A stretch of 64,000 bases of DNA from Candidatus Bathyarchaeia archaeon (GTDB lineage Archaea; Thermoproteota; Bathyarchaeia; Bathyarchaeales; Bathycorpusculaceae). Shown here piece after piece: positions 5,187 through 61,393 of the stretch. Position 1 is the first letter of the stretch. Every line of letters begins with the position of its first letter. Below the pieces are notes generated by a model that saw only the letters and a program-made list of their open reading frames with translations, made no database searches and was not told the DNA's origin. A program made the translations under genes and the position numbers. The DNA is taken from positions 128,001 through 192,000 of the forward strand of contig JBEKKK010000002.1 of assembly GCA_050010755.1 (NCBI GenBank), written 5' to 3'.

Positions 5187-6242
5187 TTATTCTGTTGCTT
5201 CTTGTCCGGCTGTCTTCATGTATTTGCGCATGTCTTCCGGGGTGGCTGAGGGAACCGGCAGGTCTTTCATCGTGTAAAGGCCGGCTGGGGCGTTTATTAC
5301 TCTTGGAATTGCATTGACGACGACGGCAACTGTTCCTATGTCGCCGTGGACGCAGGGTTGGATTTTCTGGTTGATGTTTGGGACGCCTTTGATTGTTACT
5401 GAGTCGTATTCTTCTCTTGCCCCTATGTAGGCTTGGAAATCTAGGTTTATGGCTTCTCTGTTTTTCACTATGCCTTGTGCTTTCTGTTTCAAGCCAGCCA
5501 CTTTTCCCGCGTCGACTCTTATGTCCTTGCTTTCAACGGCTTTCTTAGCGATGACTCGCTCGACGGATTGCACGTTTATCTTGTCGAGTTTCCATGCGAG
5601 GGCGTTGGCGATCATGCTGATGGATTGTTCGAGACCGACGTGTCCTGTGATGTGTTTCTTGGTGATTTTCTTTTGGAATTCTTCCGTGGTCAGTCCTGCT
5701 CCTATCTTTTTCTGGAACGGTACGCGTCTCGTCGCCGCGTTCATGATCCTTGTTACTTCGATTTTGTCTATTTTTTCGCATGCCGAAGTTAGTGTTATGA
5801 CCAGCGTGTCCATGAGAAAGCCGGGGTTTATCCCGGTGCCTAGGACGGTTGCATCGTGCTTCTTGGCCAGGGCGTCGAGTTTTCTTGCGAGTTCTGGTTC
5901 GGAAACGTATGGGTATGAGAGTTCTTCGCAGGTTGATACGACGTTGACGCCTTGTTTTAGGATTGAGGCTATCTGAGGGTACGTGTCTTTGAGGAAGGAT
6001 GAGGTTGTGTGGATTGCGATGTCCGCCATTGTCCCGTCCCGAAGCGCAGATTCAATGTTTTTTGAAATCTTGGTTCCGACTTTTCGATTCAGTCCTAAGA
6101 CTTCGCCAATGTCTTTTCCTATCTTGTCTTTGGCCACGTCTACTGCGCCGACTATTTCTACTCCTTCTTTTTCCAGCAAGAACTTGGCGATGAAACCGCC
6201 CACAACGCCCATTCCGAACGATATTACTTTTATCTTCTCCAT
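5187..6242 (-). CDS. NAD(P)-dependent oxidoreductase, 2,4-diaminopentanoate dehydrogenase (Ord)/DapB-like family
   Basis: Rossmann GMGVVG, VVSTCEEL, LGTGINPGFLMD, GHVG...S, GDIGT...VNAIPRV..A.AGL. Confidence 0.75.
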   Translation of the reverse strand: MEKIKVISFGMGVVGGFIAKFLLEKEGVEIVGAVDVAKDKIGKDIGEVLGLNRKVGTKISKNIESALRDGTMADIAIHTTSSFLKDTYPQIASILKQGVNVVSTCEELSYPYVSEPELARKLDALAKKHDATVLGTGINPGFLMDTLVITLTSACEKIDKIEVTRIMNAATRRVPFQKKIGAGLTTEEFQKKITKKHITGHVGLEQSISMIANALAWKLDKINVQSVERVIAKKAVESKDIRVDAGKVAGLKQKAQGIVKNREAINLDFQAYIGAREEYDSVTIKGVPNINQKIQPCVHGDIGTVAVVVNAIPRVINAPAGLYTMKDLPVPSATPEDMRKYMKTAGQEATE

Positions 6243-6285: not shown

Positions 6286-6360
6286 CATATAAAAGTGTGT
6301 CTGGACAGCGTTCGACTTGAATGTTCGTTTAGAACCTTTACGTTTGTAAACTTTTATATC
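6286..6360. promoter_or_regulatory. Back-to-back TATA boxes of a divergent promoter (ord-like gene / hdr-kor operon)
   Basis: ACTTTTATAT on the minus strand (~6287-6296) and on the plus strand (~6350-6359). Confidence 0.6.
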
Positions 6361-6394: not shown

Positions 6395-7837
6395 TTGGAA
6401 AGCCCAGTGACCGCTCTTTCCAAAAAGACTCTTGCGAAGATTCTGGACGCTGACAAGCTCAAGTACTGCTTTGAGTGCGGCATCTGTACGGCCAGCTGTT
6501 CTATGGCCGAGATGCTTGGAAACGACTACAACCCGCGAGCGCTGCTGGAGCAGGTTTGTCTTAACCCAGAGTCTGTTTTCAACTTGGATGAGCTTTGGCT
6601 TTGCGGGTGGTGTTACCGCTGCCAGAAACGTTGCCCTCAAGGTTTGAAACTGCCTGAAATATTCCTCTCGCTTCGATTAATCGCTAAGGAGCACGGCGGC
6701 ATGAAGGCTTTTGACAGAGCTCTTCAGAAAATAGTTGAGAATGTTCCTCTTCCACTCGTGACGACGCTGGTCTGTTTTCATCCTGAACGCGCTGGGCTAG
6801 AGAATGCCAAGGTTCTGGAGAAGATTGAGCAGATGCGCGGCGAATGGCTCAGGGCGAAGAAGCCTGAAAAATCGGGGCGAGCGTCAGAAAAGGTTGCCGT
6901 AATCGGTTCGGGACCTGCGGGCCTCACCGTCGCGTACGAGTTGGGCAGAAAGGGTTATTCGATCACGGTGTTTGAGTCTCTTCCTGAACTGGGCGGGATG
7001 CTGAGAAAATGTATACCAGAATATCGTTTGCCCAAGAAGATCCTTGCCGAGGAAGTCAAGTTCATAGAAGACTTGGGCGTCGAGGTCAAGACAGGCACAG
7101 AGATCGGGAAGGATGTGAGTTTTGAGGATCTGCGAAAGATGGGTTTTCAGGCTGTTTTTGTCGGAGCTGGGGCTCACAAGAGCCAGGGGCTCAAGGTCGA
7201 AGGGTGCGACTTGGAAGGAGTGACCGACGCTCTGGATTTTCTGTGGAGTTCGAATTGTGGTAAGAAAACGCGTGTGGGCAAGAACGTTGTCGTTGTCGGG
7301 GGTGGCAACGTTGCCATGGACGCGGCAAGAACGGCGAAGCGCAACGGGGCGGAAATGGTGACGGTGCTTTATCGAAGGTCGAGGGATGAGATGCCGGCGA
7401 ACCCGTGGGAGGTCAAAGAGGCGGAAGATGAGGGCGTGAAGATCGAGTTTTTGGTTTCGCCCAAAAAGGTTCTGGGGGAAAAGGGTAAGGTTTGCGGCTT
7501 GGAGTGTGTTCGGATGCAGTTGGGCGAGCCTGACGATTCTGGCAGGAGAAAGGCTGTTACTGCAGAGGGTTCGGATTTCAAGTGGGAGACTGACATGATG
7601 GTGCTCGCGATCGGCGAGGCGCCGGACTTGCGGTTCTTGCCGAAGCAGTTTGAGTTAAACGAAGATGGGACGGTTTGGGTCAACCCGGTGACGATGGAGA
7701 CGAGCGTGCCAGGCGTTTTCGCCGGAGGGGACGCCGTGACCGGCCCTGCCTCGGTGATTGAGGCGATTCGGGATGGGAAGCGCGCCGCGGAGTCTATTGA
7801 AAGCCTCCTGGTATCTGAGAGGAGGGTGAGACAGTGA
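6395..7837 (+). CDS. Fusion of HdrC-like 2x[4Fe-4S] domain and GltD/NfnB-like FAD/NAD(P) oxidoreductase
   Basis: CFECGICTASC and LWLCGWCYRCQKRCP; VIGSGPAGL, IPEYRLP, GGGNVAMDAAR, YRRS..EMPA, VFAGGD...GPASVIEAI. Confidence 0.85.
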   Translation: MESPVTALSKKTLAKILDADKLKYCFECGICTASCSMAEMLGNDYNPRALLEQVCLNPESVFNLDELWLCGWCYRCQKRCPQGLKLPEIFLSLRLIAKEHGGMKAFDRALQKIVENVPLPLVTTLVCFHPERAGLENAKVLEKIEQMRGEWLRAKKPEKSGRASEKVAVIGSGPAGLTVAYELGRKGYSITVFESLPELGGMLRKCIPEYRLPKKILAEEVKFIEDLGVEVKTGTEIGKDVSFEDLRKMGFQAVFVGAGAHKSQGLKVEGCDLEGVTDALDFLWSSNCGKKTRVGKNVVVVGGGNVAMDAARTAKRNGAEMVTVLYRRSRDEMPANPWEVKEAEDEGVKIEFLVSPKKVLGEKGKVCGLECVRMQLGEPDDSGRRKAVTAEGSDFKWETDMMVLAIGEAPDLRFLPKQFELNEDGTVWVNPVTMETSVPGVFAGGDAVTGPASVIEAIRDGKRAAESIESLLVSERRVRQ

Positions 7838-10269
7838 CGGAGAAGAAGGAGTCGAAGCAGGAGCAAGAGGAGCAGGTTCGAATCGGAGTCTACGTCTGCC
7901 ACTGTGGTTTGAACATCGCGGGTTCGGTTGACTGTGAGGAGGTCGCCAAGTATGCGGGAACGTTGCCCAACGTTGTTCTGGCCCAGGACAATCGTTACAC
8001 GTGTTCGGATCAGGGGCAGGCTGGAATAAAGAACGATATTAAGGAGCACAAGTTGAATCGGGTCGTCGTGGCCTCGTGTTCTCCCCGCCTTCATGAGCCG
8101 ACGTTCAGGAAAACGTGTGAAGATGCCGGTTTGAACAAGTACTTGTTTGAGATGGCTAACATTCGTGAACACTGCAGTTGGGTTCACCTTTACGACAAGG
8201 AGGCTGGTACAGAGAAGGCTAAGGATCTTGTGAAGATGGCTGTGGCCAAGGCTACGTTGCTTGAGCCTGCGGTCGAGGCTGAAGTGCCCATTACTAGAAG
8301 GGCCTTGGTCATCGGCGGCGGCGTGGCTGGCATCCAAGCGTCTCTAGATCTCGCTGACACTGGTTACAAGGTGTATCTGGTGGAGAAGGAGCCGAGCATC
8401 GGCGGGATGATGGCTAGGATTGACAAGACTTTTCCCACCATGGACTGTTCGATTTGCATTCTTGCTCCGAAGATGTCTGACGCGGGCCATCATCCGAATA
8501 TTGAGCTGTTGACTAACAGTGAGGTCAGCGAGGTGAAAGGGTACATCGGCAACTTTCACGTGAAGGTGTTGAGGAAGCCGCGTTACGTGACGAAGGATTG
8601 CTCGGCCTGCGGAGAGTGCGTGAAGGTCTGTCCAATCGCGGTTCCGAACGAGTTCGACGTTGGTTTGGCGGTTAGGCATGGAATATACACGCCTTTCGCT
8701 CAGGCTGTTCCTTCAACTTACATTATCGACATGAACCTGTGCCTCAATAAGGACGGCGTCATCGTGTGCGACAAGTGCGTAAAAGCGTGTGACAGGCAGG
8801 CGATAAGCTTCGAGACGAAGCCCGTGACTGAGGAGCTTGAAGTGGGCACGATAATCGTGGCGACTGGAGCAGACGTGTTCGACCCTACTGTGCTGCCTAA
8901 CCTCGGGTACGGTAAGATTCCCAACGTGATCACATCTCTTGAGTTTGAGAGGCTAATCAACGCTGGCGGACCATCGGGCGGCCATTTGATAAGGCCGAGC
9001 GATAGGCAGATTCCCAAGCGTGTAGCGTTTGTTCAATGCGTTGGCTCAAGGTCTGAAAAGACCGGAAAACTGTACTGCAGCAACGTTTGCTGCATGAACA
9101 CGATCAAGGACAGCCTTTTGATTAAGGAGCATTGGCCAGACACTGAAATCTACGTTTTCTACGTTGACATAAGGGCCTACGGCAAGGGTTTTGAGGACCT
9201 GTACAAGCGAGCCAGAAATGCAGGCGTTGTGTTCGTCCGAGGATTGCCGGCGCAGATTGTGGAGGATAAGAAGACGCATAACGTGTGGCTGATAGGCGAG
9301 AACACGTTAAGGAACGAAGTTTACAGGATTAACGCTGACATGGCGATTCTGTCGATAGGGCTGGAGGCTAGGAAGGACAGCGAGACGATTCAGCGGTTGC
9401 TGACGCTCTCGAGGAACCAGGACGGTTTCTTCTTGGAGGCACATCCGAAGCTCAGACCTGTCGACGCTGCTACGGGCGGCGTTTTCTTCGCCGGTTGCGC
9501 CGAGTCTCCAAAGGACATAAAGGACAGTGTGACACAGGCCAGCGCGGCTGCGGCTCGAGCAGGCATACTCATGGCGAAAGGGCACGTGACGGTTGAAGCA
9601 ATCACGCCCATCACGTTTCCTGAAAAGTGCAAGGCCTGCGGACTCTGCGTGAAGGTCTGCCCTTACAATGCCATCAGTTTGAACAAGGATTTGAAGAGGG
9701 TTGAAATCATCGAGGCGGCATGCGGCGGCTGCGGCACGTGCGCGGCCGAGTGCAACTTCGGTGCTTTGACTCAGAAGCACTTCACGGACGAGCAGATAAT
9801 TGCCCAGATAGATGCGATTACTGAGAATGAGCCTGAGAAGAAGATCGTCGCTTTCTGCTGCAACTGGTGTTCGTATGCAGGCGCGGACTTTGCCGGAGTT
9901 AGTCGTATGCAATATCCACCTAACGCGCGGATTATAAGGACGATGTGTTCTGGACGTGTTTCTCAAAAATTTGTCGAAAGGGCTTTCGCGCGTGGCGCCG
10001 CCACTGTGCTCGTGTCCGGCTGCCACCTAGGCGACTGTCATTACATCAACGCGAACTACCAGACGCAGAAGCGGATGGAGCGGTTGTGGAAGAAGATGGA
10101 GCAGAGCGGTTTGGACAAGCAGCGTCTGCAGCTTCTGTGGGCTTCTGCGGCCGAGGGCGAAAAATTCGCGTCAAAAATGCGTGAGATGAAGACGATAGTG
10201 GACAAGGTTAAGCTTGAGGAGATCGAGAAGGGCAAGAAGGTTTTTGCAAAAGTTTTGGAGGGCGACTAG
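7834..10269 (+). CDS. hdrA: Heterodisulfide reductase subunit A fused to an intact MvhD domain
   Basis: CHCG/CSP/EHCSWVH, GGGVAG, FPTMDCSIC, ferredoxin inserts, QCVGSR/CSNVCCM; MvhD FCCNWCSY...MCSGR...GCHLGDCHY. Confidence 0.95.
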   Translation: MTEKKESKQEQEEQVRIGVYVCHCGLNIAGSVDCEEVAKYAGTLPNVVLAQDNRYTCSDQGQAGIKNDIKEHKLNRVVVASCSPRLHEPTFRKTCEDAGLNKYLFEMANIREHCSWVHLYDKEAGTEKAKDLVKMAVAKATLLEPAVEAEVPITRRALVIGGGVAGIQASLDLADTGYKVYLVEKEPSIGGMMARIDKTFPTMDCSICILAPKMSDAGHHPNIELLTNSEVSEVKGYIGNFHVKVLRKPRYVTKDCSACGECVKVCPIAVPNEFDVGLAVRHGIYTPFAQAVPSTYIIDMNLCLNKDGVIVCDKCVKACDRQAISFETKPVTEELEVGTIIVATGADVFDPTVLPNLGYGKIPNVITSLEFERLINAGGPSGGHLIRPSDRQIPKRVAFVQCVGSRSEKTGKLYCSNVCCMNTIKDSLLIKEHWPDTEIYVFYVDIRAYGKGFEDLYKRARNAGVVFVRGLPAQIVEDKKTHNVWLIGENTLRNEVYRINADMAILSIGLEARKDSETIQRLLTLSRNQDGFFLEAHPKLRPVDAATGGVFFAGCAESPKDIKDSVTQASAAAARAGILMAKGHVTVEAITPITFPEKCKACGLCVKVCPYNAISLNKDLKRVEIIEAACGGCGTCAAECNFGALTQKHFTDEQIIAQIDAITENEPEKKIVAFCCNWCSYAGADFAGVSRMQYPPNARIIRTMCSGRVSQKFVERAFARGAATVLVSGCHLGDCHYINANYQTQKRMERLWKKMEQSGLDKQRLQLLWASAAEGEKFASKMREMKTIVDKVKLEEIEKGKKVFAKVLEGD

Positions 10270-10270
10270 T

Positions 10271-10549
10271 ATGCCAGAAAGGATTCGACATGCCCCGCTT
10301 GACCTGGAAAAAGTCAAACCTGCAAAAATGGAGATCCATCTCATCAAGGATGAGTGCAAAGGATGCGGCTACTGCATCGAATACTGTCCCAAGAAGGTGT
10401 TGGAACAGTCGGACGAAATAAATGCCAGGGGAGTTCACCCTCCCAGAATCGTGGACGAGAGCCAGTGCATTAACTGCAGCTTCTGCAGCATAGTCTGCCC
10501 GGACTTTGCGATTTTCGTTACTGAGAAGAAGAACAAGGAGGAGAAGTGA
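10271..10549 (+). CDS. korD: 2-oxoacid:ferredoxin oxidoreductase delta subunit (2x[4Fe-4S])
   Basis: CKGCGYCIEYCP and CINCSFCSIVCPDFAI; directly precedes the alpha subunit. Confidence 0.88.
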   Translation: MPERIRHAPLDLEKVKPAKMEIHLIKDECKGCGYCIEYCPKKVLEQSDEINARGVHPPRIVDESQCINCSFCSIVCPDFAIFVTEKKNKEEK

Positions 10550-10550
10550 A

Positions 10551-11702
10551 ATGCCCAAAGCGAAGAGTGCGTTAACTGGCGCCCATTTCCTGAACGGCGA
10601 CATCGCCTGTGCCGAAGGCGCAATAGCGGCTGGATGCAGGTTTTTTGCAGGTTACCCGATTACGCCAGCAACAGAGATCGCCGAACATCTGTCTATGAGA
10701 ATGCCCGAATTTGGCGGAATCTACATTCAGATGGAGGATGAGATTGCGTCGATGGCGGCCGTCATCGGTGCTTCTTATTCCGGTTTGAAGGCCATGACCG
10801 CGACTTCGGGGCCTGGTTTCAGCCTCATGCAGGAGAACATAGGGCTTGCCGTTATGACGGAGGCTCCGTGCGTGATCGTGGACGTTATGCGAGGCGGTCC
10901 GAGCACTGGGCAGCCGACCTTGCCCGGACAGCAGGACGTGATGCAAGCCAAATGGGGTTCGCATGGCGATTATGGCATAATAGCTCTTTCGCCCAGTTCG
11001 GTTCAGGAGATGTTCGATTTAACCGTTGAAGCCTTCAACCTTTCTGAGACTTACCGCGTTCCGACCCTGCTGATGGGCGACGAGATAGTGGGTCACATGT
11101 GGGAGAAAGTGGTCATTCCTCCTCCCGACAAGATACGAATTGTAAACAGAAAGAAGCCGAACGTTCCACGAGAGAAGTATCTGCCGTTCAAGCCTGACGA
11201 AAATCTGGTGCCGTCCATGGCCTGTTTCGGCGAGGGCTTCCGTTTTCACGCGACGGGTTTGACGCACAACGAACACGGTTATCCGAGGACCACGAGTTCC
11301 GAGGTTCAGTCTCAACTCGTTCATCGTCTGGTCGACAAGATTCAGAAGAACGCGGACAAGATAGTCAGGGTTGAGGAAGTTATGCTTGAAGACGCCGACA
11401 TCGTCGTCGTCGCTTACGGCATTGTTGCCCGTGCTGGGCTGAGCGCGATTAGAAAGGCTAGAGAGAAAGGCATCAAGGCAGGATTGTTGAGGCTGATAAC
11501 ACTGTGGCCCTTCCCGGAAAAACAGGTTGCTAAAGCAGCGCAGAGCGCTAGGGCGATTGTTGTGCCAGAGATGAACTGTGGGCAGATGGTCCGAGAGGTT
11601 GAGAGAGCTGCAAAAGAGACCCCTGTTGCGTTTCTCTCAAAGTTGGGGGAGGATCCTCACACTCCACTGGAGATTCTTGAGGTCATAAGGAGGAGCAAGT
11701 AG
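10551..11702 (+). CDS. korA: 2-oxoacid (2-oxoglutarate-type):ferredoxin oxidoreductase alpha subunit
   Basis: FAGYPITPATE, QMEDEIA, TATSGPGFSLMQE, RGGPSTGQPT, PEMN. Confidence 0.93.
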   Translation: MPKAKSALTGAHFLNGDIACAEGAIAAGCRFFAGYPITPATEIAEHLSMRMPEFGGIYIQMEDEIASMAAVIGASYSGLKAMTATSGPGFSLMQENIGLAVMTEAPCVIVDVMRGGPSTGQPTLPGQQDVMQAKWGSHGDYGIIALSPSSVQEMFDLTVEAFNLSETYRVPTLLMGDEIVGHMWEKVVIPPPDKIRIVNRKKPNVPREKYLPFKPDENLVPSMACFGEGFRFHATGLTHNEHGYPRTTSSEVQSQLVHRLVDKIQKNADKIVRVEEVMLEDADIVVVAYGIVARAGLSAIRKAREKGIKAGLLRLITLWPFPEKQVAKAAQSARAIVVPEMNCGQMVREVERAAKETPVAFLSKLGEDPHTPLEILEVIRRSK

Positions 11703-12563
11703 ATGGTTCAAGAAAATGTTCCGCCGGTCATTTTGCATCCGTTTTCGAAGTATCTGAGAGAAGATATGATGCCGCACATCTGGTGTCAGGGTTGTGGCAA
11801 CGGTGTATTGTTGAACGCTTTCGTGCACGCGTTGGATGAACTTCAAACGGACTTGGACAAGTTGGTCGTCGTTTCAGGCATTGGCTGCATCGGAAGAAGT
11901 GCTGGGTACATGAACACGGATTCCTTCCATACAACACATGGTCGTGCCCTACCCTTTGCAACAGGAGTCAAGTTGGCAAACCCTGAGTTAGAGGTCGTCG
12001 TCATAAGTGGTGATGGTGACCTCTTCGCTATAGGAGGAAACCATTTCATTCACGCGGCCAGGAGAAACATCGGCATCAAAGTGCTATGTGCAAACAACCT
12101 GAACTACGGCATGACTGGAGGTCAGCAGGGCCCCACCACGCCGCTTGACTCGGTGACCACCACAAGCATGTACGGGAACATCGAGCATCCGTTCAACCTT
12201 GTCCACTTGGCGGCAGCCTCGGGCGCCACCTACGTGGCCCGCTGGACATCTTTGCACGTGCGCAGGTTGACGCAGTCTATCAAGAAGATGCTGCAGAAGG
12301 AGGGCTTCTGTTTCATTGAGATGCTCTCACCTTGTCCTGAAATCTATGGCCGCTACAACAAGATGCGGTCGGGCCTCGAAATGATGGGCTGGTTCAAAAA
12401 GGCCTCAGTTGTCGAAAACTTTTCAGATCCGTCGAAGGCCGATATCACTGCGGACAGGATAGTCGTTGGCGAATTCGTTGATATCAATAAGTTGAGCTAC
12501 GAGAAGATGCTGCACGAGAAGATTTCAAAGATAAACGAAAAGGCGATGGAAAAGGTGAGTTAG
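11703..12563 (+). CDS. korB: 2-oxoacid:ferredoxin oxidoreductase beta subunit (TPP-binding)
   Basis: WCQGCG, SGIGC, HTTHGRA, GDGD...IGGNHFIHAARRN, YGMTGGQ. Confidence 0.93.
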   Translation: MVQENVPPVILHPFSKYLREDMMPHIWCQGCGNGVLLNAFVHALDELQTDLDKLVVVSGIGCIGRSAGYMNTDSFHTTHGRALPFATGVKLANPELEVVVISGDGDLFAIGGNHFIHAARRNIGIKVLCANNLNYGMTGGQQGPTTPLDSVTTTSMYGNIEHPFNLVHLAAASGATYVARWTSLHVRRLTQSIKKMLQKEGFCFIEMLSPCPEIYGRYNKMRSGLEMMGWFKKASVVENFSDPSKADITADRIVVGEFVDINKLSYEKMLHEKISKINEKAMEKVS

Positions 12564-12564
12564 C

Positions 12565-13107
12565 ATGAGAGTCGAGGTTAGGTTCGCAGGCTTCGGAGGC
12601 CAGGGAATAATCAAGTCTGGGATAATCGTGGCGGCAGCGGCTTCCATACACTCAGACAAGAACGCTGTTCAAACGCAGTCTTACGGTCCTGAGTCGCGTG
12701 GGGGAGCGTGCAAGTCCGAAGTCGTGATTTCTGAGGAAGACATTGATTTCCCGAAGGTTGTCGAGCCCGATGTGTTGGTAGTGATGTCGCAGGCCGCTTA
12801 CAACGATTACGCAGATGACGTTAAGCCTGGGGGCACGGTGATTCTGGATCCCGACATGATTCCGCGCCGGAAGGAAATGAAGGGCCTAAGGGTCTATCAA
12901 GTTCCCGCAACGAAGATTGCGGAGGAACTGGGAAGAAGAATAGTTGCAAACATCGTCATGTTAGGCGCGTTCACCGCCATCACCGAGCTGATGGATGAAA
13001 AAGCGTTGAAGGAGTCTGTCAAGGAAAACATTCCCAAGGGAACTGAAGAGTTAAACCTGGCAGCCTTCGACAAGGGATTCGAATACGGAAAGACCTTCAA
13101 AAACTAG
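12565..13107 (+). CDS. korC: 2-oxoacid:ferredoxin oxidoreductase gamma subunit
   Basis: GFGGQG, QSYGPESRGG, NIVMLGA. Confidence 0.93.
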   Translation: MRVEVRFAGFGGQGIIKSGIIVAAAASIHSDKNAVQTQSYGPESRGGACKSEVVISEEDIDFPKVVEPDVLVVMSQAAYNDYADDVKPGGTVILDPDMIPRRKEMKGLRVYQVPATKIAEELGRRIVANIVMLGAFTAITELMDEKALKESVKENIPKGTEELNLAAFDKGFEYGKTFKN

Positions 13108-13109: not shown

Positions 13110-13718
13110 TTACGCGCTCTGCTGAACTTGCGGTTGGGACGCGACAGATACTACTTTTGAGCCCCTGACGCCTACGTGACGCAGTGGAGCGATTTTTTTT
13201 GCGTCGTTGTATATGTCAGACGCTATTTTTCCGAGAACGATTTCCTGTGCGAGCTGATCCATCGTGAGGGCGGAGGCTTTTTCTTTCATTATCTTGTCCA
13301 TTATGGCGCGCAGGATCTTTTCCTGTGATGTTTTGATTCTTGAGAGTGTAAAAGCGCTGACAGCTATTCTCAAGGTGTACCCGTCTTTCGTCGTGACCTT
13401 GAACAGGCCGTCAACCTTCGTTGTTCTGCGTCTCACTAGGCTTCGCAGGTAATCCCGCGAGTATTCATGCCCCTTAAACATTGTCTTAGCCGTTTTGCCG
13501 TCGATTTCGGTTATCTGGAAGCGCATCTTCAGGTACTGGTGGGCAAAATCGTTCGTAATGTCGTAAAGCGTCGAGTCGATTACTCTTCCGATGAGTTTCT
13601 CCGGTTCATCAGCAGGGACTCCGCCAAGCTCGACGTTTCCAAAGTAGGGTGGAGCCGTTACCATGTACCACTGCTTGCTTCGCCACTTGTCGCGCACTTT
13701 CTTCGTTTTTGAAGACAC
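13110..13718 (-). CDS. rps3ae: 30S ribosomal protein S3Ae (eS1)
   Basis: RDKWRSKQWY..APPYF, DYLRSLVRRRTTKVD, KKIAPLRHV. Confidence 0.95.
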   Translation of the reverse strand: MSSKTKKVRDKWRSKQWYMVTAPPYFGNVELGGVPADEPEKLIGRVIDSTLYDITNDFAHQYLKMRFQITEIDGKTAKTMFKGHEYSRDYLRSLVRRRTTKVDGLFKVTTKDGYTLRIAVSAFTLSRIKTSQEKILRAIMDKIMKEKASALTMDQLAQEIVLGKIASDIYNDAKKIAPLRHVGVRGSKVVSVASQPQVQQSA

Positions 13719-13768: not shown

Positions 13769-15058
13769 TTACCGTTTGTACGTTATTTTTTCGATACCGC
13801 CCATGTATTTTCTCAGGGCTTCGGGAACCGTTATTGATCCGTCTTCCTGCTGATAGTTTTCGAGGATGGCAACGATTGTTCTTCCTGTTGCGAGGGCTGT
13901 TGAGTTCAGGGTGTGGACGAAGCCTTTGGGTGCTTCCCCTTCTTTTTCTCTGTACTTGATGTTTAATCTTCTGGCCTGATAGTCGGTGCAGTTACTGCAA
14001 GAAACCAATTCTCGATAGGCGCTCTGCGCCGGCATCCACGCTTCAATGTCGTATTTTTTCGCGGCCACGGTTCCGATGTCGCCCGTGCACACGTTCACAA
14101 CACGGTACGAAAGCCCGAGTTTCCGAACAATCTCCTCAGCGTTGTGTATCAGTTCTTCATGGATTTTCCACGAGTCTTCAGGCTTGCAGAACACGAACTG
14201 TTCAACCTTGTTGAACTGGTGCGTTCGAAAAATCCCCTTCGTGTCCTTGCCATGCGCCCCTGCTTCTTTCCTGAAACAGGGGCTAAATCCTACAAGTTTG
14301 AGAGGAAGGTCTTCTGCTCTCAGGACTTCGTCCATGTACATTGACGCCATAGGGTGCTCAGCGGTCGCGATGAGGTACAGGTCTTCGTTTTCAATCTTGT
14401 AGAGCACGTCTTCGAAGTCGCTCAGGGCGACTGCTCCTTCGTAGGGTTTGCGTCTGATAAGAAAAGGCGGCTCGATTGGCTCGTAGCCCTTCTTGCTCAT
14501 TTCTTCCAGGGCGAAGCTGATGATGGCGTTGTCGAGGAAGACGGCTTCGTTCTTGAGATAGAAGAATCTTGCTCCGGCGATTTTTCCCGCCCTCTCGATG
14601 TCTATGATGTCAAGGTTAAGGCCTAGGTCTATGTGGCCTTTTACTGGAAAACTGAACTTGGGTGTCTTGCCCCATTTTCTGATTTCAACGTTATCGTTTT
14701 CGTCCTTGCCCACGGGCACGGTTTCATGGAGCAGGTTTGGCAGGCGCATCAGCAGGTCGTGCACCTTCTCTTCCCATTCGCTGACGTGCCCTTCGAGAGT
14801 GCTGATTTCATTATCCGTTTTTTTTGCCTTGGAGATTTTGTCAGCGGCGTCTTCACCCTTTTTCTTCGTCGTGGCTATCTCGGCGGTTATCTGCTTTCTC
14901 TCGTGGCGAAGCTCGTTCAGTCTGGTTAAGCCTTGCCGCCATTGTTTGTCATAATCGATTAGGCTCTCGAGCATTTTCTCGTTTCCAGGATCTCCCCTCT
15001 TCTTCAAATTGTTCCTTATAGAGTCTGGGTTTTCCCGAATGAGCTTGATATCAAGCAT
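13769..15058 (-). CDS. serS: Serine--tRNA ligase (standard type)
   Basis: MLDIKLIREN, coiled-coil arm, LIATAE, CFRKEAG, FRTHQFNKVEQF, ELVSCSNCTDYQARR, HTLNST. Confidence 0.97.
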   Translation of the reverse strand: MLDIKLIRENPDSIRNNLKKRGDPGNEKMLESLIDYDKQWRQGLTRLNELRHERKQITAEIATTKKKGEDAADKISKAKKTDNEISTLEGHVSEWEEKVHDLLMRLPNLLHETVPVGKDENDNVEIRKWGKTPKFSFPVKGHIDLGLNLDIIDIERAGKIAGARFFYLKNEAVFLDNAIISFALEEMSKKGYEPIEPPFLIRRKPYEGAVALSDFEDVLYKIENEDLYLIATAEHPMASMYMDEVLRAEDLPLKLVGFSPCFRKEAGAHGKDTKGIFRTHQFNKVEQFVFCKPEDSWKIHEELIHNAEEIVRKLGLSYRVVNVCTGDIGTVAAKKYDIEAWMPAQSAYRELVSCSNCTDYQARRLNIKYREKEGEAPKGFVHTLNSTALATGRTIVAILENYQQEDGSITVPEALRKYMGGIEKITYKR

Positions 15059-19435: not shown

Positions 19436-20854
19436 TTAACGGTTGGCCGGTTTCTTCATCAGGTATTCATGCATTGCTTTTGCGGCTTTTTTGCCTGCGC
19501 CCATCGCGCTTATGACTGTGGCTTCGCCTGTCACTATGTCGCCTCCTGCGTAGACGCCGTCGATGTTGGTTTTGCCGTTTTCGTCTGCCACTATGGTGCC
19601 CCATTTTGTGACGGCTAGTCCTTGTGTTGTGCTTTGTATTATCGGGTTGGGTGTTCTTCCAATGGCGACTATGACCGTGTCAACATCCATAACAAACTCG
19701 GAACTCTTGGCTGGAACGGGTCTTCTTCTGCCTGACTCGTCTGGTGGTCCGAGGTCCATGCATATGCATTCCATGGCTTTTACCCAGCCCTTGTCATCGC
19801 CGATGAACTTGGTTGGGTTAGCTAGGAACTTGCATGTTATTCCCTCTTCCTCTGCATTTTCCACTTCTTCGCGTCTCGCCGGCAATTCTTCTCTAGAACG
19901 GCGGTAGACGATGCAGACTTCTTCGGCGCCCAAGCGCAGTGCGGAACGGGCTGAATCCATTGCAACGTTGCCCCCGCCAATGACGGCCACCTTCCTGCCG
20001 ATTCTAATCGGCGTGTCACACTCTGGAAAGGTGTAGGCTTTCATCAGGTTGACTCGTATCAGAAATTCGTTTGCAGAGTAGATGCCTCCAAGGTTTTCCC
20101 CTGGAACTCCTAGAAACTGGGGCAAACCTGCCCCGGTTCCGATGAAAACTGCGTCGAAGCCTCTCTTGAGCAGTTCAGGAATGGTGAATGTTCTTCCGAT
20201 GATGCAGCTTGCGCGGATCTCCACGCCGAGTTTCTTGACATAGTCCGCTTCGGCCTCAACGATCGTCTTGGGCAAGCGGAACTCGGGTATTCCATACATG
20301 AGCACTCCACCCGGACGATGCAACGCTTCAAAAATAACAACCTCATGCCCCAGTTTCACCAAGTCTGCAGCCGCGGTGAGACCAGCGGGACCGGCGCCTA
20401 TGATTGCAACGCGCTTGCCAGTGGCTGGAGCCTTTTCCGAGCATGCGATTCCCGTCTTTCTTTCCCAATCGGCGAGGAACCTCTCTAGGCGGCCTATGCT
20501 GACAGCGTCGCCTGCCTTGCCGAGCAAGCATACGTTTTGACACTGTTCCTCCTGCGGGCAGACACGGCCGCAGATGGCAGGAAGACAGTTCTTGTCCTTG
20601 ATCTTCTTTATTGCGGCGCCATAGTCTTTTTCTCTCATCGATTTGATGAACGCTGGAATGTTAACCTCAACTGGGCAACCCTGCACACACTGAGGTTTCG
20701 GGCACTGTAGGCAGCGGCCCGCTTCTGCTAGGGCCTGTTCCTCGTTGTAGCCGAGGGCAACTTCGTTGAAGTTTCTTCTGCGGGCTTCAGGTGCCTGTTT
20801 TGGAATCTGGACAGCTTGCTTCTGAAGCTTGGGTTTTGCCTTGGGCTCACTCAT
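19436..20854 (-). CDS. nfnB: NADH-dependent reduced ferredoxin:NADP oxidoreductase large subunit (NfnB/SudA)
   Basis: RCLQC...CVQGCP, CGRVCPQEEQC, GAGPAGL, ANEFLIRVNLMKAY, GGGNVAMD; overlaps nfnA. Confidence 0.9.
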   Translation of the reverse strand: MSEPKAKPKLQKQAVQIPKQAPEARRRNFNEVALGYNEEQALAEAGRCLQCPKPQCVQGCPVEVNIPAFIKSMREKDYGAAIKKIKDKNCLPAICGRVCPQEEQCQNVCLLGKAGDAVSIGRLERFLADWERKTGIACSEKAPATGKRVAIIGAGPAGLTAAADLVKLGHEVVIFEALHRPGGVLMYGIPEFRLPKTIVEAEADYVKKLGVEIRASCIIGRTFTIPELLKRGFDAVFIGTGAGLPQFLGVPGENLGGIYSANEFLIRVNLMKAYTFPECDTPIRIGRKVAVIGGGNVAMDSARSALRLGAEEVCIVYRRSREELPARREEVENAEEEGITCKFLANPTKFIGDDKGWVKAMECICMDLGPPDESGRRRPVPAKSSEFVMDVDTVIVAIGRTPNPIIQSTTQGLAVTKWGTIVADENGKTNIDGVYAGGDIVTGEATVISAMGAGKKAAKAMHEYLMKKPANR

Positions 20855-21689
20855 GGTGGGCGCACCTCTTTTCTTGCAGCCGTTGTAACGCTGCTTTTTC
20901 CTCTGACATGTAGGCCGTTTGTCTCTTCAACAATTCTCCGAAATTCACCATGTGAGCGTCAAACTCGGGGCCGTCCACGCATGCAAACCTTGTTCTATCG
21001 CCCACGCTTACTCTGCACGCGCCGCACATGCCCATGCCGTCGACCATTATAGGGTTCAAACTCACGATGGTTTTGATGACGTATGGCCTCGTCGTTTCTG
21101 CGACAGCCCGCATCATAACGGTAGGGCCTATCGCGTAAACAACGTCAAAATGGTAGCCCTTCTCAATCAGCATCTTCAAGACATCGCTGACGAACCCCTT
21201 GTGCCCCTTCGATCCGTCATCGGTCGAGATGTGAAGCTCGTCAGAAACTCTTTTCATGTCATCCTCGAGTATGAGTAACCCTGCTGTCTTTGCCCCCACT
21301 ATCGACACAACCTTGTTGCCAGCCTGCTTGAAGCCTCTGGCAATCGGAAACGCAGAGGCAGTGCCCACTCCTCCGCCTATGACACACACGGATCCGAACC
21401 TCTCTATGTCACTGGGATTCCCCAGGGGACCCAGAACATCAAAAATCACGTCCCTAACGTTGAGCGCACCTAGTTTTTCGGTTGAGACTCCAATCTCAAG
21501 AAAGATCAGAGTGATAGTACCTTTCTTCTTGTCCCAGTCCACGATCGTTAAGGGAAATCGCTCGCCATTCTCGTCGATTCTCAGAATGACGAACTGGCCT
21601 GGCTGAGCTTTTTGAGCTATCTCGGGCGCTTCGACTTCAATCGATTTGATTTTCGGGGCTAACTCTTTCTTTGAAACGATTTGATGCAT
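20847..21689 (-). CDS. nfnA: NfnA/SudB small subunit (FNR-like, [2Fe-2S])
   Basis: PGQFVILR..GERFPLTI, GPLGNP, GGGVG, TDDGS, MVDGMGMCGACR, CVDGPEFD. Confidence 0.92.
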   Translation of the reverse strand: MHQIVSKKELAPKIKSIEVEAPEIAQKAQPGQFVILRIDENGERFPLTIVDWDKKKGTITLIFLEIGVSTEKLGALNVRDVIFDVLGPLGNPSDIERFGSVCVIGGGVGTASAFPIARGFKQAGNKVVSIVGAKTAGLLILEDDMKRVSDELHISTDDGSKGHKGFVSDVLKMLIEKGYHFDVVYAIGPTVMMRAVAETTRPYVIKTIVSLNPIMVDGMGMCGACRVSVGDRTRFACVDGPEFDAHMVNFGELLKRQTAYMSEEKAALQRLQEKRCAHHE

Positions 21690-28332: not shown

Positions 28333-29442
28333 TTATAGTGCTAGATTGAGCAGTTCGGCAATGTCCATGATTTGGATTTTGCCCTCGGAGCCTGTAGTTT
28401 TGACGGCGTCTTCAAATGTTAATAGGCAGTATGGGCAGGCTGTGGCCAGGATTTCCGCTCCAGCTTCCACAGCGTCTTTAACGCGGGTTTCCGCTAAGCG
28501 TGGACCGGGAATGTCAACCCACATTCTTCCTCCGCCTCCTTCGCAGCAGACGCTTCGAGCTCGGGACCGGTCGAACTCCAACAGTTTGACGCCAGGCACG
28601 CTTTCGATAACTTTTCTCGGTTCTTCGTATATGCCGTTTTGTTTGCCTAGGAAGCACGGGTCGTGATAGATGACTTTCTTGTTCACTTCCTTCGAAAACG
28701 CCAGTTTTTTATCTTCAATCAGCTTAGCGAGCAGTTGAGTGTGATGTTGTATTTCGAAGCTTGTCTGGTTGTACCTGTTCTTGAACGCGTGATAGCCGTG
28801 CGGGCAGCTTGTCACTGCTTGTTTGACATTGTACTTGTTGAAGGTTTTCATGTTCTCTTCAACCAGGAAGTCGAAAAGGCCTTTTTCTCCCATGCCGTAG
28901 ACTTCGCTTCCGCAGCAGTTTTCTTCGTCGCCTAGAACACCGAAGTTCACCCCAGCCTTTGCAAGGACACACGCTAAGCTCTTGGCGACACTTTGGACTC
29001 GCGGATCATAAGCCGAGGTACAACCTACAAAGTATAGAACGTCTGCACCTTGCGACATGTGTTTCAGGTTCAGATCTTGAGCCCATTCTGACCTTTTGTT
29101 GCGGATTCTTCCCCATGGGTTGCCGTTCTTGAATATGCTTTCCAGCGCGTCTCTTATCGTCGGGGCGATTTGTCCTTCCTCAACGGCTATTCCGCGGATG
29201 TCAATCAAAAACTCGTACGGGTTCAAATCTTTTGGGCAACGGACGCCGCACGTGCTACAGGTTGTGCAGCTCCACAGCTCATTCTGAGAATGCTGAGTGA
29301 GCTTGCCCATTGTGGCAACTTCTCGCATGTACTTTCTGACGTTAAGGTTGGCTTTGCGGGCAACTGGGCAACTTCCCGTGCATGTTCCACACTGAATGCA
29401 TTCGAGAAGCTTGTGTTTCTGAGTGAGTTCTTGAGCGTTCAT
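28333..29442 (-). CDS. HdrD-like Fe-S oxidoreductase (2x[4Fe-4S] plus two CCG domains)
   Basis: CIQCGTCTGSCP, WSCTTCSTCGVRCP, GNPWG, YFVGC...ENCCG...SCPH, YHDPC...CCEGGGG...TACPYC; start 29442 or 29451. Confidence 0.9.
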   Translation of the reverse strand: MNAQELTQKHKLLECIQCGTCTGSCPVARKANLNVRKYMREVATMGKLTQHSQNELWSCTTCSTCGVRCPKDLNPYEFLIDIRGIAVEEGQIAPTIRDALESIFKNGNPWGRIRNKRSEWAQDLNLKHMSQGADVLYFVGCTSAYDPRVQSVAKSLACVLAKAGVNFGVLGDEENCCGSEVYGMGEKGLFDFLVEENMKTFNKYNVKQAVTSCPHGYHAFKNRYNQTSFEIQHHTQLLAKLIEDKKLAFSKEVNKKVIYHDPCFLGKQNGIYEEPRKVIESVPGVKLLEFDRSRARSVCCEGGGGRMWVDIPGPRLAETRVKDAVEAGAEILATACPYCLLTFEDAVKTTGSEGKIQIMDIAELLNLAL

Positions 29443-29539
29443 GTTGCCCATCACTTTTATTTGAATGGGGAGCATAAGATTATTAAAGCGTTTTCCCGTG
29501 AATTGTTTGAAACATATCATGCAAAAGGAGATTTCACCC

Positions 29540-37725: not shown

Positions 37726-38514
37726 TTGGACGTAATTGTCTGTGTCAAGCATGTTCCGGAAACTGCTGAGGCAGAGTTGAAAATTGACTCCACCGGCAAA
37801 GCCATTGACAAGACAGGCTTGGTATTTGACATCAACGAATGGGACGATTATGCGTTGGAGGAAGCGGTGCGCATGAAGGAAAAGCAGGGAGGAACAGTCA
37901 CTGCCATAACCATAGGCGCTGAGGACTCTGACACTACCCTTAGAAAATGTCTTGCCCGAGGAGCCGACAAAGCCATAAGGCTTTCAGACCCGAAGTTCAA
38001 CGATTCAGATGGCTACGCTATAGCAAAAATCTTGCACAGCGTAATCAAGACTCTTCATTTCGACTTAATCCTGACAGGAATGCAAGCAGGCGACGACGGT
38101 CAAGCCATCGTGGGCCCCATTCTTGCGGAAATGCTCAAGATCCCTCATGCGACGATGGTAAAAAAAATCGAGCTTGCTCCAGGAATGGCTAAAGTCAACA
38201 GAGAACTCGAAGGCGGATTGGAAGAGCAGCTTGAAGTGAAAATGCCCGCGTTGCTTTCGGTTCAGACTGGAATAAACGAGCCAAGATACGTTTCAATAAT
38301 GGGCATCAGAAAAGCCATGCAGAAAGAAATAAAACTCATGACCCTAGCAGACACCGGGCTAACTGAGAACGATGTCGGTGCAGCAGGCTCGTGGATCAGA
38401 ATAGAAAAGATGTACGTTCCACCCGTGGAGAAACAGGCAGAATTCATCAAGGGAAGCCCCGACGAAATCGCGACAAGAGTGACTGAAATTCTCAAGTCAA
38501 GGGGGTTGATATAA
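37726..38514 (+). CDS. etfB: Electron transfer flavoprotein beta subunit
   Basis: IVCVKHVP, INEWDDYALEEAVR, LARGADKA, G.QA.D...VGP, NEPRY. Confidence 0.95.
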   Translation: MDVIVCVKHVPETAEAELKIDSTGKAIDKTGLVFDINEWDDYALEEAVRMKEKQGGTVTAITIGAEDSDTTLRKCLARGADKAIRLSDPKFNDSDGYAIAKILHSVIKTLHFDLILTGMQAGDDGQAIVGPILAEMLKIPHATMVKKIELAPGMAKVNRELEGGLEEQLEVKMPALLSVQTGINEPRYVSIMGIRKAMQKEIKLMTLADTGLTENDVGAAGSWIRIEKMYVPPVEKQAEFIKGSPDEIATRVTEILKSRGLI

Positions 38515-38515
38515 G

Positions 38516-39511
38516 ATGACAGAAATCTTCGTTTTAGCTGAACACCGACAAGGGCAACTCAGAGACATAACCTATGAGATGCTCACGAAAGCGCGAGAAC
38601 TATCAGAAAAGACTGGCTCAGAACTAACCGCCCTTCTCCTCGGCAAAGACGTGAAAGAACACGCAAAGATGCTGACAGAATACGCGAAAACCGTTGTATT
38701 AGTTGAAGATGCCAGACTTGAAAACTTCAACTCTGAAGCTTACAAGAAAATCCTGTCAAACCTAATCACCCAACACAAGCCTCTGCTGGTCATGATGGGC
38801 CACACCTCCTACGGCGTGGACCTTGCCCCGAGACTCGCAACAGCGCTGAACCTGCCGCTCGCAACAGACTGCATAGATCTAGCGTTTGAAAACGGCGCGC
38901 TTACAATGACTCGGCAAATGTTCGGCGGCAAGGTAAACGTAAAAGCCGCCGCCAGAAGAGCTGAAACCTACATCACAACAGTTCGTCAGGCGACGTTTGC
39001 GCCGCAAAAGCCTTCACTGCCTCCAAACGGGCAAATCGTCGAGACAGCTTCAACCCTGACGGAGGAAATAGCCGAAAAGCGTTTCATACAGTATGTCTTG
39101 CCTCCCTCCGGCGGGGTTGATATCACGGCCGCTGAAAAACTTGTGGGAATCGGTCGGGGAATAAAAGACGTCGCAAACATGCCAGTAGCCGATGAACTCG
39201 CAAAAACATTAGGCGGAGTACTTGCCTGTTCACGCCCAATCGTGGACAAAGGATGGCTTCCCACGGATCGTCAAGTGGGCACTTCCGGAAAGACTGTGAA
39301 ACCAAAACTGTATCTCGCCCTCGGAATCAGCGGTGCGTTCCAACACGTACTCGGAATGAAAAGCTCAGACCTGATAATAGCCGTGAACAAAGACCCCAAA
39401 GCACCAATCTTCAGCTACGCCGACTTCGCTATAGTCGAAGACCTCTTCAAAATTGTTCCCTCACTTAAGAACAAAATAAATGAGTCAAAAACGCAGAAAA
39501 CATGTAAGTAA
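38516..39511 (+). CDS. etfA: Electron transfer flavoprotein alpha subunit
   Basis: LAPRLA, GIGRG, CSRPIVD.GW, QVGTSGKTVKPKLY, GISGAFQHVLGM, AVNKD..APIF. Confidence 0.95.
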   Translation: MTEIFVLAEHRQGQLRDITYEMLTKARELSEKTGSELTALLLGKDVKEHAKMLTEYAKTVVLVEDARLENFNSEAYKKILSNLITQHKPLLVMMGHTSYGVDLAPRLATALNLPLATDCIDLAFENGALTMTRQMFGGKVNVKAAARRAETYITTVRQATFAPQKPSLPPNGQIVETASTLTEEIAEKRFIQYVLPPSGGVDITAAEKLVGIGRGIKDVANMPVADELAKTLGGVLACSRPIVDKGWLPTDRQVGTSGKTVKPKLYLALGISGAFQHVLGMKSSDLIIAVNKDPKAPIFSYADFAIVEDLFKIVPSLKNKINESKTQKTCK

Positions 39512-39528
39512 TTAGGAGAGAAGAACAG

Positions 39529-40680: not shown

Positions 40681-40781
40681 CCAGTCCCTTTCTTTCTTTT
40701 TCGATTCGCGATCTAGCACAAATTCACAAGTTTTATTACCATTCTCCGTGCACTCTGGAATGTCCAACCGGGGAAACGATA

Positions 40782-43123: not shown

Positions 43124-43180
43124 CAAACCATCTAAAAAAGTAATATATTCACAGTCAAGATACACTGTAGTAGGTGACAC

Positions 43181-43972: not shown

Positions 43973-44032
43973 TCTCTCCCCCGCTTTTCACATTTATTTC
44001 AAAGTAAACCAAAATTGAAGGATGTGGTTAGG

Positions 44033-52498: not shown

Positions 52499-52546
52499 AC
52501 CATAATGAATTTATCGCTCCAAAAGCGTTCGGATATTCTGATAGAG

Positions 52547-52777: not shown

Positions 52778-52792
52778 CAGGATCCAGATGAA

Positions 52793-57271: not shown

Positions 57272-57272
57272 A

Positions 57273-57713: not shown

Positions 57714-57725
57714 GTTGAGGAAAGC

Positions 57726-58424: not shown

Positions 58425-58426
58425 GC

Positions 58427-61391: not shown

Positions 61392-61393
61392 AA

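Follow-up and report, generated by a model that had tools for sequence, protein, structure and literature searches.

We analyzed a stretch of 64,000 nucleotides (nt) from a Candidatus Bathyarchaeia archaeon (contig JBEKKK010000002.1, positions 128,001 to 192,000 of the forward strand), hereafter the window, and focused on a six-gene operon located on its forward strand at positions 6395-13107. The operon encodes a chimeric flavoprotein (gene 1), a fusion of HdrA and MvhD (gene 2), and KorD, KorA, KorB and KorC, the subunits of a 2-oxoacid:ferredoxin oxidoreductase (OFOR) (Table 1). The six genes are translationally coupled: genes 1 and 2 overlap by 4 nt (GTGA, as read from the DNA) and the following spacers measure 1 nt (HdrA/KorD), 1 nt (KorD/KorA), 0 nt (KorA/KorB) and 1 nt (KorB/KorC), in agreement with an earlier note on this DNA that described the genes as overlapping or lying within 1 nt of each other. 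The open reading frames (ORFs) were called with the limits given in Table 1 except for KorD (called at 10214-10549) and KorA (called at 10506-11702). Because relatives of these two proteins align from residue 20 and from residues 15-16 of the called frames, respectively, their true starts are placed at the ATG codons 10271 and 10551. The host is an uncultured archaeon of sediment and peat with a genome of 2.19 Mb in 8 contigs that is 93% complete, and the closest named relatives of the window are metagenome-assembled genomes of Bathyarchaeia.

Table 1. Features of the six-gene operon, with positions counted from the first letter of the window (aa, amino acids).
Feature	Positions	Strand	Basis
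TATA-like box TTTTATAT	6352..6359	+	Position-based; 36 nt 5' of the TTG start of gene 1
Gene 1, chimeric flavoprotein, 480 aa	6395..7837	+	Pfam, NCBIfam, chain matches, alignment-based model
Gene 2, HdrA2-type HdrA (residues ~13-662) fused to MvhD (~666-792), 811 aa	7834..10269	+	NCBIfam, chain alignments
KorD, delta subunit, 2x[4Fe-4S] ferredoxin-like, 92 aa	10271..10549	+	Fer4_7, Fer4; OGOR_delta 70.9 bits, below the cut-off of 125
KorA, alpha subunit, 383 aa	10551..11702	+	POR_N, PFOR_II; NF006412 587 bits, above the cut-off of 411
KorB, beta subunit (TPP-binding), 286 aa	11703..12563	+	TPP_enzyme_C; NF007207 263 bits, below the cut-off of 364
KorC, gamma subunit, 180 aa	12565..13107	+	POR family; NF006323 249 bits, above the cut-off of 235

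Gene 1 is composed of two parts. Residues ~20-105 (nt 6452-6709) constitute an HdrC-type domain with two [4Fe-4S] clusters, and residues ~106-475 constitute a scaffold of the NfnB/GltD type with FAD and NAD(P)H Rossmann domains. Pfam detected Fer4_8 at residues 22-84 and Pyr_redox_2 at 166-461, and the NCBIfam matches included the HdrC model TIGR03290 (3.5e-18) as well as NfnB/GltD families. Residues 20-105 matched the HdrC chains 9sfi_E (1e-16) and 5odc_C (3.5e-16), where they aligned with HdrC residues 29-112, and the segment from ~75 or 106 to 475 matched the NfnB-type chains 9n5u_A (9e-92), 9bov_A (8e-90), 5jca_L (5e-77) and 4ylf_B (7e-75). The NfnB-type homology starts around residue 75, within the second HdrC motif (CQKRCP). 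The eight HdrC-type cysteines are invariant in all 31 family members, with C127 as the sole further near-invariant cysteine, and the second cysteine motif of the Fer4_20 type is degenerate in the family. We found no match to Fer4_20 in gene 1 at E<=0.01, whereas the canonical NfnB of the window reaches 4.9e-42. The latter protein (472 aa) is encoded together with an NfnA of 280 aa carrying DHODB_Fe-S_bind at 19436-21689 on the reverse strand, which indicates that the organism has a normal Nfn besides the chimeric paralogue.

The alignment-based model of gene 1 (pLDDT 88, pTM 0.88) superimposed over residues 10-474 on 5jca_L, the large subunit of Pyrococcus furiosus NfnI (Z 32.9, rmsd 3.5 Å over 398 residues, 40% identity), and Foldseek returned a TM-score of 0.70. 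Since gene 1 aligns with this subunit from residue 10, the HdrC-like domain occupies the position of the NfnB cluster domain. The C-terminal third of HdrC is absent from gene 1 and the NfnB scaffold stands in its place. The HdrC-like domain is a replacement of NfnB's own N-terminal two-cluster domain and not an added domain. The fusion of HdrC to a flavoprotein described in the earlier note was therefore correct in that an HdrC-like domain is carried by an NfnB/GltD scaffold, but the two are not joined end to end. Gene 1 resembles NfnAB/NfnI (4ylf, 5jca) in its NfnB fold, its FAD and NADPH domains and two sequence motifs. It differs from this system by lacking the Fer4_20 domain, by the loss of the second cysteine motif and by the absence of a neighboring NfnA, its neighbors being HdrA-MvhD and a divergent dehydrogenase.

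The two motifs in question are G302-G303-G304-N-V-A (GXGXXA) and Y326-R327-R328. Both are invariant or at least 90% conserved in the 31 members and are common to the matched NfnB-type chains. The arginine pair, located after the strand next to the G302 motif, presumably binds the 2'-phosphate. Acidic residues are found at the site of this pair in three of the 31 members (P0125, P0134 and P0138), and the cofactor may thus vary within the family. GXGXXA has been linked to NADP and GXGXXG to NAD (PMC12054007). Together, the two motifs of gene 1 point to NADPH as its probable cofactor.

Gene 2 passes the NCBIfam model of HdrA2 (NF040770; 1255.4 bits for a cut-off of 1100) and presents an FlpD (MvhD) domain at residues 671-791. 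It is colinear with the HdrA chain 5odc_A (1.7e-248) without any large insertion, and its tail matches the MvhD chain 5odc_D (5e-44). All 16 aligned sequences share the cluster cysteines, K425 and E372, the last two being aligned with K409 and E356 of 5odc_A. A comparative study from 2025 presents this Lys/Glu pair at the HdrA flavin as key residues for bifurcation (PMC12054007). Gene 2 therefore presents the FAD, the six [4Fe-4S] sites and the Lys/Glu pair by which HdrA is recognized, and its inserted ferredoxin domain has been kept. It is also much more conserved than gene 1 (93% vs. 78% identity in the related locus L009). As in MvhAGD-HdrABC, the heterodisulfide reductase of methanogens (5odc, 8rvu), we observed the HdrA clusters and FAD-site residues, the MvhD module and an HdrC-type module adjoining HdrA. 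In contrast to that complex, the operon has no HdrB/CCG and hence no heterodisulfide site, its HdrC consists of the ferredoxin core only and runs into the flavoprotein, its MvhD is fused to HdrA, and mvhAG is found elsewhere. The CCG (HdrB) domain was absent from all six operon proteins in Pfam searches. The operon thus lacks hdrB, as the earlier note had stated, with the qualification that CCG genes are present at five other places of the genome.

The HdrA-MvhD fusion belongs to the same NCBIfam family as that of HdrA2B2C2, the F420H2- and ferredoxin-dependent enzyme of Methanosarcina acetivorans (PMC5296606). HdrA2 of this species is reported to adjoin a polyferredoxin (PMC9012536), as is the case in some relatives of the window pair. 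The partner is different, however: HdrC-NfnB takes the place of HdrB2C2 and a pyridine-nucleotide site is present. NAD did not replace F420 in the Methanosarcina HdrA2 enzyme (PMC5296606).

We modeled the full HdrA-MvhD, as a monomer, together with residues 1-165 of gene 1, using separate alignments for each chain. The complex obtained a score of 0.64 and the best of three controls a score of 0.00. Of 80 solved complexes, 58 attained the score mark, as did 2 of 110 mismatched pairs, although this calibration is rough here due to the use of our own alignments. Contact agreement across the runs was at least 96% and the pLDDT of the partner was at least 72. The predicted interface involves residues 21-49 and 79-83 of gene 1, which correspond to the cluster motifs, and positions 356, 402, 406-410, 413, 444, 470-474 and 487-497 of HdrA. 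The model predicts that the N-terminal domain docks on HdrA, as the proposal of the earlier note requires. This indicates that the domain resembles an HdrC that fits HdrA, which does not by itself demonstrate binding.

The fusion is not restricted to the host. Relatives of equal length in metagenomes amount to at least thousands among the matches listed, and the family forms ~7 clusters at 50% identity covering the N-terminus. The host's class was sampled evenly at 401 genomes, 220 of them of high quality, and the fusion was present in 47 genomes and in 37 of the high-quality ones. We then labeled with reference proteins the neighborhoods of all 49 fusion places found in 46 genomes other than the host. 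The fusion lies directly 5' of HdrA-MvhD (>=70% identity) at 41 of the 49 places. Its recurrence across genomes and this adjacency dispel the suspicion, raised in the earlier note, that the fusion might be a misassembly. Three of the remaining places carry a paralogous fusion upstream of a split HdrA (L080, L083 and L088), two have HdrA-MvhD as the divergent neighbor of the fusion (L086 and L087), one presents the GltD part without the first motif next to HdrA-MvhD (L066), and one is a short contig of 7.2 kb carrying the fusion without HdrA (L082). At the last place (L090; G306:C19), a different protein of 1165 aa with 45-51% identity to the GltD part precedes an HdrB-like gene, which constitutes another fused architecture.

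These neighborhoods bear on the possibility that the two genes are independent neighbors, gene 1 being a free-standing ferredoxin:NADP oxidoreductase or a sulfide-dehydrogenase-like enzyme, and HdrA-MvhD a separate one. Stand-alone enzymes of the NfnB family exist, such as 5vj7_A, titled 'Ferredoxin NADP Oxidoreductase (Xfn)', and the fusion of L082 is itself found without HdrA. Nevertheless, the pair is adjacent at 41 of 49 places and divergent at two more, its adjacency spans families at 45-69% identity, genes 1 and 2 overlap by 4 nt, and gene 1 is predicted to present an HdrC-type docking surface. We consider it very improbable that the two proteins function apart.

A scan of named genomes yielded 29 loci, nine archaeal and 20 bacterial, some of whose contigs overlap with the class survey, such that the two datasets are not independent of each other. 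The six-gene order was kept in eight of the nine archaeal loci (L011 ends at a contig edge). In the ninth (L016, 9995-17277), the pair precedes genes for two proteins, one Molydop_binding and one Amidohydro_3, which we take to be Fwd-like. No stand-alone fusion with an HdrC-type N-terminus was found at the 20 bacterial loci, where the long proteins of L018 and L022 are HdrL-like and contain Fer4_20. Similarly, an HdrC-type flavoprotein fused to HdrA was not found in the seven long forms examined (P0127, P0129, P0133, P0150 and P0267, taken from 150 listed representatives, and the bacterial L018 and L022); all are HdrL-type, with Fer4_20 in 7/7.

The last four genes of the operon encode a four-subunit OFOR of the Kor/Oor type, and all four subunits present the expected domains. 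KorA and KorC pass generic NCBIfam models, and the 2-oxoglutarate models are the top matches for KorB and KorD, both under their cut-offs (Table 1). Other OFORs are encoded elsewhere in the genome, including a second Kor paralogue (52% identity). Among the 42 places where the fusion (or the GltD part of L066) directly precedes HdrA-MvhD, four are cut by a contig end, and Kor follows the pair in 30 of the 38 assessable places. The co-encoded Kor emphasized in the earlier note is thus a frequent neighbor of the pair but not an obligatory one. At the eight places without Kor, the neighbors are still ferredoxin-type proteins. L077 is flanked by a Fer4_11 protein of 264 aa and a polyferredoxin of 324 aa (Pfam); six further places have flanking ORFs like those of L077, labeled by size and weak matches only; and in L089 (1347-8365) the ferredoxin is KorD-like and precedes CdhC, a Prismane-family gene being located upstream. 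Near the divergent pair of L087 (174-7988) are a polyferredoxin, an aldehyde:ferredoxin oxidoreductase (AOR) and a Fer4_11 protein. The variable neighbors, with the exception of MetVF, are ferredoxin-type proteins or very-low-potential enzymes, and the conserved core is the two-gene pair formed by the fusion and HdrA-MvhD.

The MetVF genes were observed at L083 (3896-10443), a second copy in genome G211, where the paralogous HdrC-type flavoprotein precedes an HdrA split into two chains, the first of 438 aa and the second of 714 aa with MvhD, and MetV (DUF5981) and MetF (MTHFR) come next. HdrB is absent between the paralogous pair and MetV-MetF. This cluster could encode a Moorella-type reductase of methylene-tetrahydrofolate (or methylene-tetrahydromethanopterin) that is linked to NAD(P)H and built with the module.

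The frequency of Kor and the translational coupling of the six genes are both compatible with an NAD(P)+-linked 2-oxoacid dehydrogenase supercomplex operating without bifurcation, in which electrons from KorDABC would travel via HdrA-MvhD and then the HdrC-like clusters before reaching the NfnB-type FAD and NAD(P)+. The five-subunit NADH-dependent phenylglyoxylate dehydrogenase, an OFOR with an extra flavoprotein, offers a model for such an enzyme, and PadE/F/G/I-type OFOR subunits are weak NCBIfam relatives of KorC/D/A/B. However, the pair occurs without Kor at eight of the 38 places and with AOR, CdhC, Fwd-like or MetVF genes elsewhere, and the second Kor paralogue of the genome lies away from the operon's hdr genes. 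In addition, a plain wire would not require HdrA to retain its bifurcation residues and its ferredoxin domain. We therefore regard a supercomplex of this kind as improbable.

One of the five other places with CCG/HdrB-type genes is in the window: the gene at 28333-29616 (-) encodes an HdrD-like fusion of HdrC and HdrB (Fer4_8 and two CCG domains) and is divergent from a second HdrA-MvhD at 29465-31906 (+). These two ORFs overlap as called, which implies that their real starts lie later. HdrA-type genes were found at five further places among the loci examined: the Mvh cluster of contig C1, the second HdrA-MvhD of the window, two at C1:44-56k and one at C1:262-270k. HdrB/C/D-type genes adjoin four of these five, the exception being the upstream HdrA-MvhD of C1:44-56k. 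A cluster of contig C4 contains two HdrA-type genes and a polyferredoxin. MvhAG is encoded once, in the C1 cluster, along with its own MvhD and HdrABC, and it provides the sole [NiFe] hydrogenase large subunit that we found. This C1 cluster (G000:C1:1049205-1059012; L038 3205-13013) encodes a GltD-ferredoxin protein (578 aa), an MvhD-like protein (251 aa), an HdrA of 1021 aa with two flavin domains, MvhD, HdrC, HdrB, MvhG and MvhA.

The CCG proteins encoded at five other places could supply the missing subunit of a disulfide reductase. A dimeric HdrA-MvhD would then receive NAD(P)H through gene 1 at one HdrC site, and HdrBC or HdrD encoded elsewhere would reduce a disulfide; the reaction, from NAD(P)H to ferredoxin (Fd) and disulfide, would be the one proposed for FlxABCD-HdrABC and for non-methanogen homologues of HdrA2. 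In line with this, HdrB2C2 of Methanosarcina is reported to be largely unclustered with HdrA2 (PMC9012536), and Yan et al. suggest that the non-methanogen homologues use NADH and other disulfides (PMC5296606). On the other hand, each CCG gene that we examined already adjoins its own HdrA-type or HdrC-type gene, the HdrC-like domain of gene 1 is predicted to sit in the HdrC site, and no CCG gene was labeled at the 41 places with the fusion next to HdrA-MvhD, using a reference set with one HdrB only. A disulfide reductase is, in our opinion, an unlikely explanation.

The match of gene 2 to the HdrA2 model also raises the question of F420. An HdrA2-type flavin reacting with F420 could, in either direction, couple the reduction of F420 to reduced ferredoxin and NAD(P)H, and HdrA2 of M. 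acetivorans alone catalyzed ferredoxin-dependent F420 reduction (PMC5296606). The genome contains F420 ligase genes of the CofE type at three places. In contrast, FrhB_FdhB_C had no match in this 93%-complete genome, which lacks any detected F420 domain of the FrhB/FdhB type, although direct F420 binding by HdrA is compatible with this result. Moreover, F420H2 would be too weak a donor for ferredoxin and NAD(P)+, judging from standard potentials. An F420-linked enzyme thus appears quite unlikely.

The electron paths of the known enzymes provide a framework for the pair. In HdrABC, the FAD of HdrA bifurcates and the two clusters of HdrC carry electrons between HdrA and HdrB, the [2Fe-2S] cluster of MvhD lies within electron-transfer distance of an HdrA cluster, and in Nfn the bifurcating FAD is in NfnB with NADPH binding beside it (PMC5861303). 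We consider the odds slightly better than even that genes 1 and 2 form a soluble complex with two flavins and no HdrB, in which NAD(P)(H) is coupled to low-potential ferredoxin. The HdrC-type [4Fe-4S] clusters of gene 1 would dock at the HdrC site on HdrA and wire the HdrA flavin to the second FAD, which would exchange hydride with NAD(P)(H). NAD(P)+/NAD(P)H would thereby take the branch whose terminus in HdrABC is the heterodisulfide. The inserted ferredoxin domain of HdrA would provide the low-potential branch, connected to the ferredoxin pool of KorDABC; in other lineages, AOR, CODH/ACS, Fwd-like genes or polyferredoxins would be the low-potential neighbor.

A third branch would leave through the [2Fe-2S] cluster of MvhD, and the candidate redox partners are H2 via MvhAG, F420 or a disulfide. 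Our first choice is the single MvhAG [NiFe] hydrogenase of the genome, which is the least certain step of the proposal. The reversible reaction would be 2 H2 + Fd(ox) + NAD(P)+ <-> Fd(red) + NAD(P)H. In the reverse direction, NAD(P)H and reduced ferredoxin from the oxidation of amino acids or 2-oxoacids would be disposed of as H2. Ferredoxin and NAD(P)+ as acceptors fit a donor near -400 mV, that is, H2 or formate. The complete proposal, a [NiFe] hydrogenase that splits the electrons of H2 to ferredoxin and NADP+ with the flavins of HdrA and NfnB in series, is possible but rather doubtful. HydABC and HytA-E are known to operate with the stoichiometry from 2 H2 to NAD(P)+ and ferredoxin (table in PMC5861303). 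The resemblance to these enzymes is limited to the proposed overall reaction and the physiological logic: their proteins are unrelated, with a NuoF-type FMN and an [FeFe] center, and the H2 link of the window pair is one that we infer.

Several observations weigh against the two-flavin complex or its link to H2. The earlier note envisioned a hydrogenase or a formate dehydrogenase docked on MvhD, which is a conjecture at this stage: mvhAG lies outside the operon with its own MvhD and HdrABC, and the search for formate dehydrogenase returned two molybdopterin-type genes, both elsewhere (C1:500606 and C4:117375). MvhA-like genes were found in 41 of the 46 fusion-bearing genomes, but also in 274 of the 401 genomes overall and in 98 of the 103 of the window's family; as they are this common and related genomes are not statistically independent, their co-occurrence with the fusion says nothing specific. 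No hydrogenase is needed by the HdrA2 of Methanosarcina, which reacts with F420 (PMC5296606), and CofE-type genes are present in the host. The NfnB-type FAD is itself a bifurcating flavin (PMC5861303), so that the direction and the site of bifurcation may differ from those proposed. The docking model is a two-chain fragment composed of a monomeric HdrA and 165 residues of gene 1, and solved HdrA-HdrC complexes exist (5odc, 8rvu, 7bkb), such that its score may reflect memory or likeness rather than binding. Finally, the activity of every family member is deduced from sequences and models.

Systems in which a GltD/NfnB domain is joined to HdrA have been described previously. HdrL was named 'heterodisulfide reductase/glutamate synthase fusion' (PMC2702500), HdrABC/HdrL and HdrAL/POR were reported in Syntrophobacter (PMC5947623), HdrA of Moorella thermoacetica carries a GltD domain (PMC9430772), NfnB-like insertions are found in HdrA of ANME-1 (PMC9012536), and type III HdrA is found in ANME-1 and Bathyarchaeota (PMC12054007). 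Like the window pair, HdrL, type III HdrA and the Moorella HdrA bring together in one system MvhD, the HdrA flavin and a second flavin, which is of the NfnB/GltD type and has a pyridine-nucleotide site. In these, however, GltD is inside the HdrA chain with Fer4_20. The two studies that locate the insertion place it in or near the HdrA ferredoxin domain (PMC12054007, PMC9012536), and HdrBC is usually kept. The flavoprotein of the window is instead a separate ORF with an HdrC-type domain that is predicted at the HdrC site, leaving the ferredoxin domain free. Type III HdrA also differs by its GXGXXG motif, gene 1 having GXGXXA (PMC12054007). HdrAL/POR of Syntrophobacter fumaroxidans (Sfum_0012-0018; PMC5947623) is similar in that HdrA/HdrL-type genes adjoin a 2-oxoacid:ferredoxin oxidoreductase. 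This system, which we compared by its description, is bacterial and HdrL-type and was undetected in the proteome of the species (PMC5947623). One NAD(P)H-linked HdrA system has been purified, the MetFV-HdrABC-MvhD complex of Moorella.

In a mostly open-access literature, we found no published account in which GltD/NfnB is joined to an HdrC-type domain next to HdrA-MvhD, whether Kor is present or not. The joining of GltD/NfnB to HdrA is already known, and what is new in the window is a separate chain with an HdrC-type domain, predicted at the HdrC site, in the absence of HdrB. The suggestion of the earlier note that the system is undescribed thus applies to the arrangement itself but not to NAD(P)H-linked HdrA architectures in general (HdrL, type III HdrA).

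The region upstream of the operon is 152 nt long and is shared with a divergent gene at 5187-6242 (-), which presents DAP_DH_C and DapB_N domains, resembles 2,4-diaminopentanoate dehydrogenase and was found at 27 of the 49 related places. Each strand of this region contains one TTTTATAT: the TATA-like box of Table 1, and a second copy at 6287-6294 (-) facing the divergent gene. There are no others in the 64 kb. This count represents no enrichment, as two or more copies were observed in 31 of 100 shuffles, and position is the sole support for the TATA box mentioned in the earlier note. At L013, LamB_YcsF, CT_C_D and CT_A_B genes, which we assume to be of the 5-oxoprolinase type, come after the divergent dehydrogenase-like gene. 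The dehydrogenase-like and 5-oxoprolinase-type neighbors would fit a glutamate/2-oxoglutarate setting, a physiological conjecture in which one NAD(P)H and one reduced-ferredoxin pair per substrate would match the input ratio of a confurcating hydrogenase.

At the other end of the operon, KorC stops 2 nt from a convergent S3Ae-like gene at 13110-13718 (-), recognized by eye only, which is followed by a seryl-tRNA synthetase gene at 13769-15058 (-; Pfam match). These two genes were found 3' of the operon at 18/49 and 15/49 related places, respectively. In the metatranscriptome run X1, contigs 85-96% alike cover all 30 bins of the stretch and represent relatives rather than the host: of the 137 pieces, none is at least 99% alike, 4 are 95-99% alike, 42 are 90-95% alike and 91 are below 90%. 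Among those listed, one contig spans HdrA/KorD and one spans KorB/KorC. As X1 consists of assembled contigs of relatives, for which DNA carry-over is possible, these contigs are a weak hint that the operon is transcribed and do not prove a single transcript. By eye, we also noted in the window putative genes for EtfB/EtfA, acyl-CoA dehydrogenase and further beta-oxidation-type proteins (37726-45205, +), putative hydrogenase-maturation genes HypF, HypC (MCLAIP motif) and HypD (50207-53881, +), and a long series of short genes that resembles a ribosomal-protein cluster (55220-64000, +).

The Bathyarchaeia are among the most abundant archaea of anoxic sediments and peat, and they possess many Hdr paralogues with unassigned acceptors, since methanogenic coenzymes are mostly absent from them. 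An HdrA complex ending at NAD(P)+ would give one of these paralogues a concrete and testable reaction and would join two of the four known lineages of bifurcating flavoproteins (HdrA and NfnB) at a new junction, the HdrC site. The arrangement is common, conserved and directly testable, which makes it of moderate to high interest, and the two core genes span 3.9 kb, a size suited to heterologous expression. If true, the proposal would be relevant to the production or disposal of low-potential ferredoxin by fermenters and acetogens that are limited in energy. Should H2 and NADP+ be the partners, this would explain the use of Mvh/Hdr in abundant non-methanogenic archaea without CoM-S-S-CoB, as well as why the module travels with Kor, AOR, CODH/ACS and Fwd: NAD(P)+ would be the missing 'heterodisulfide'.

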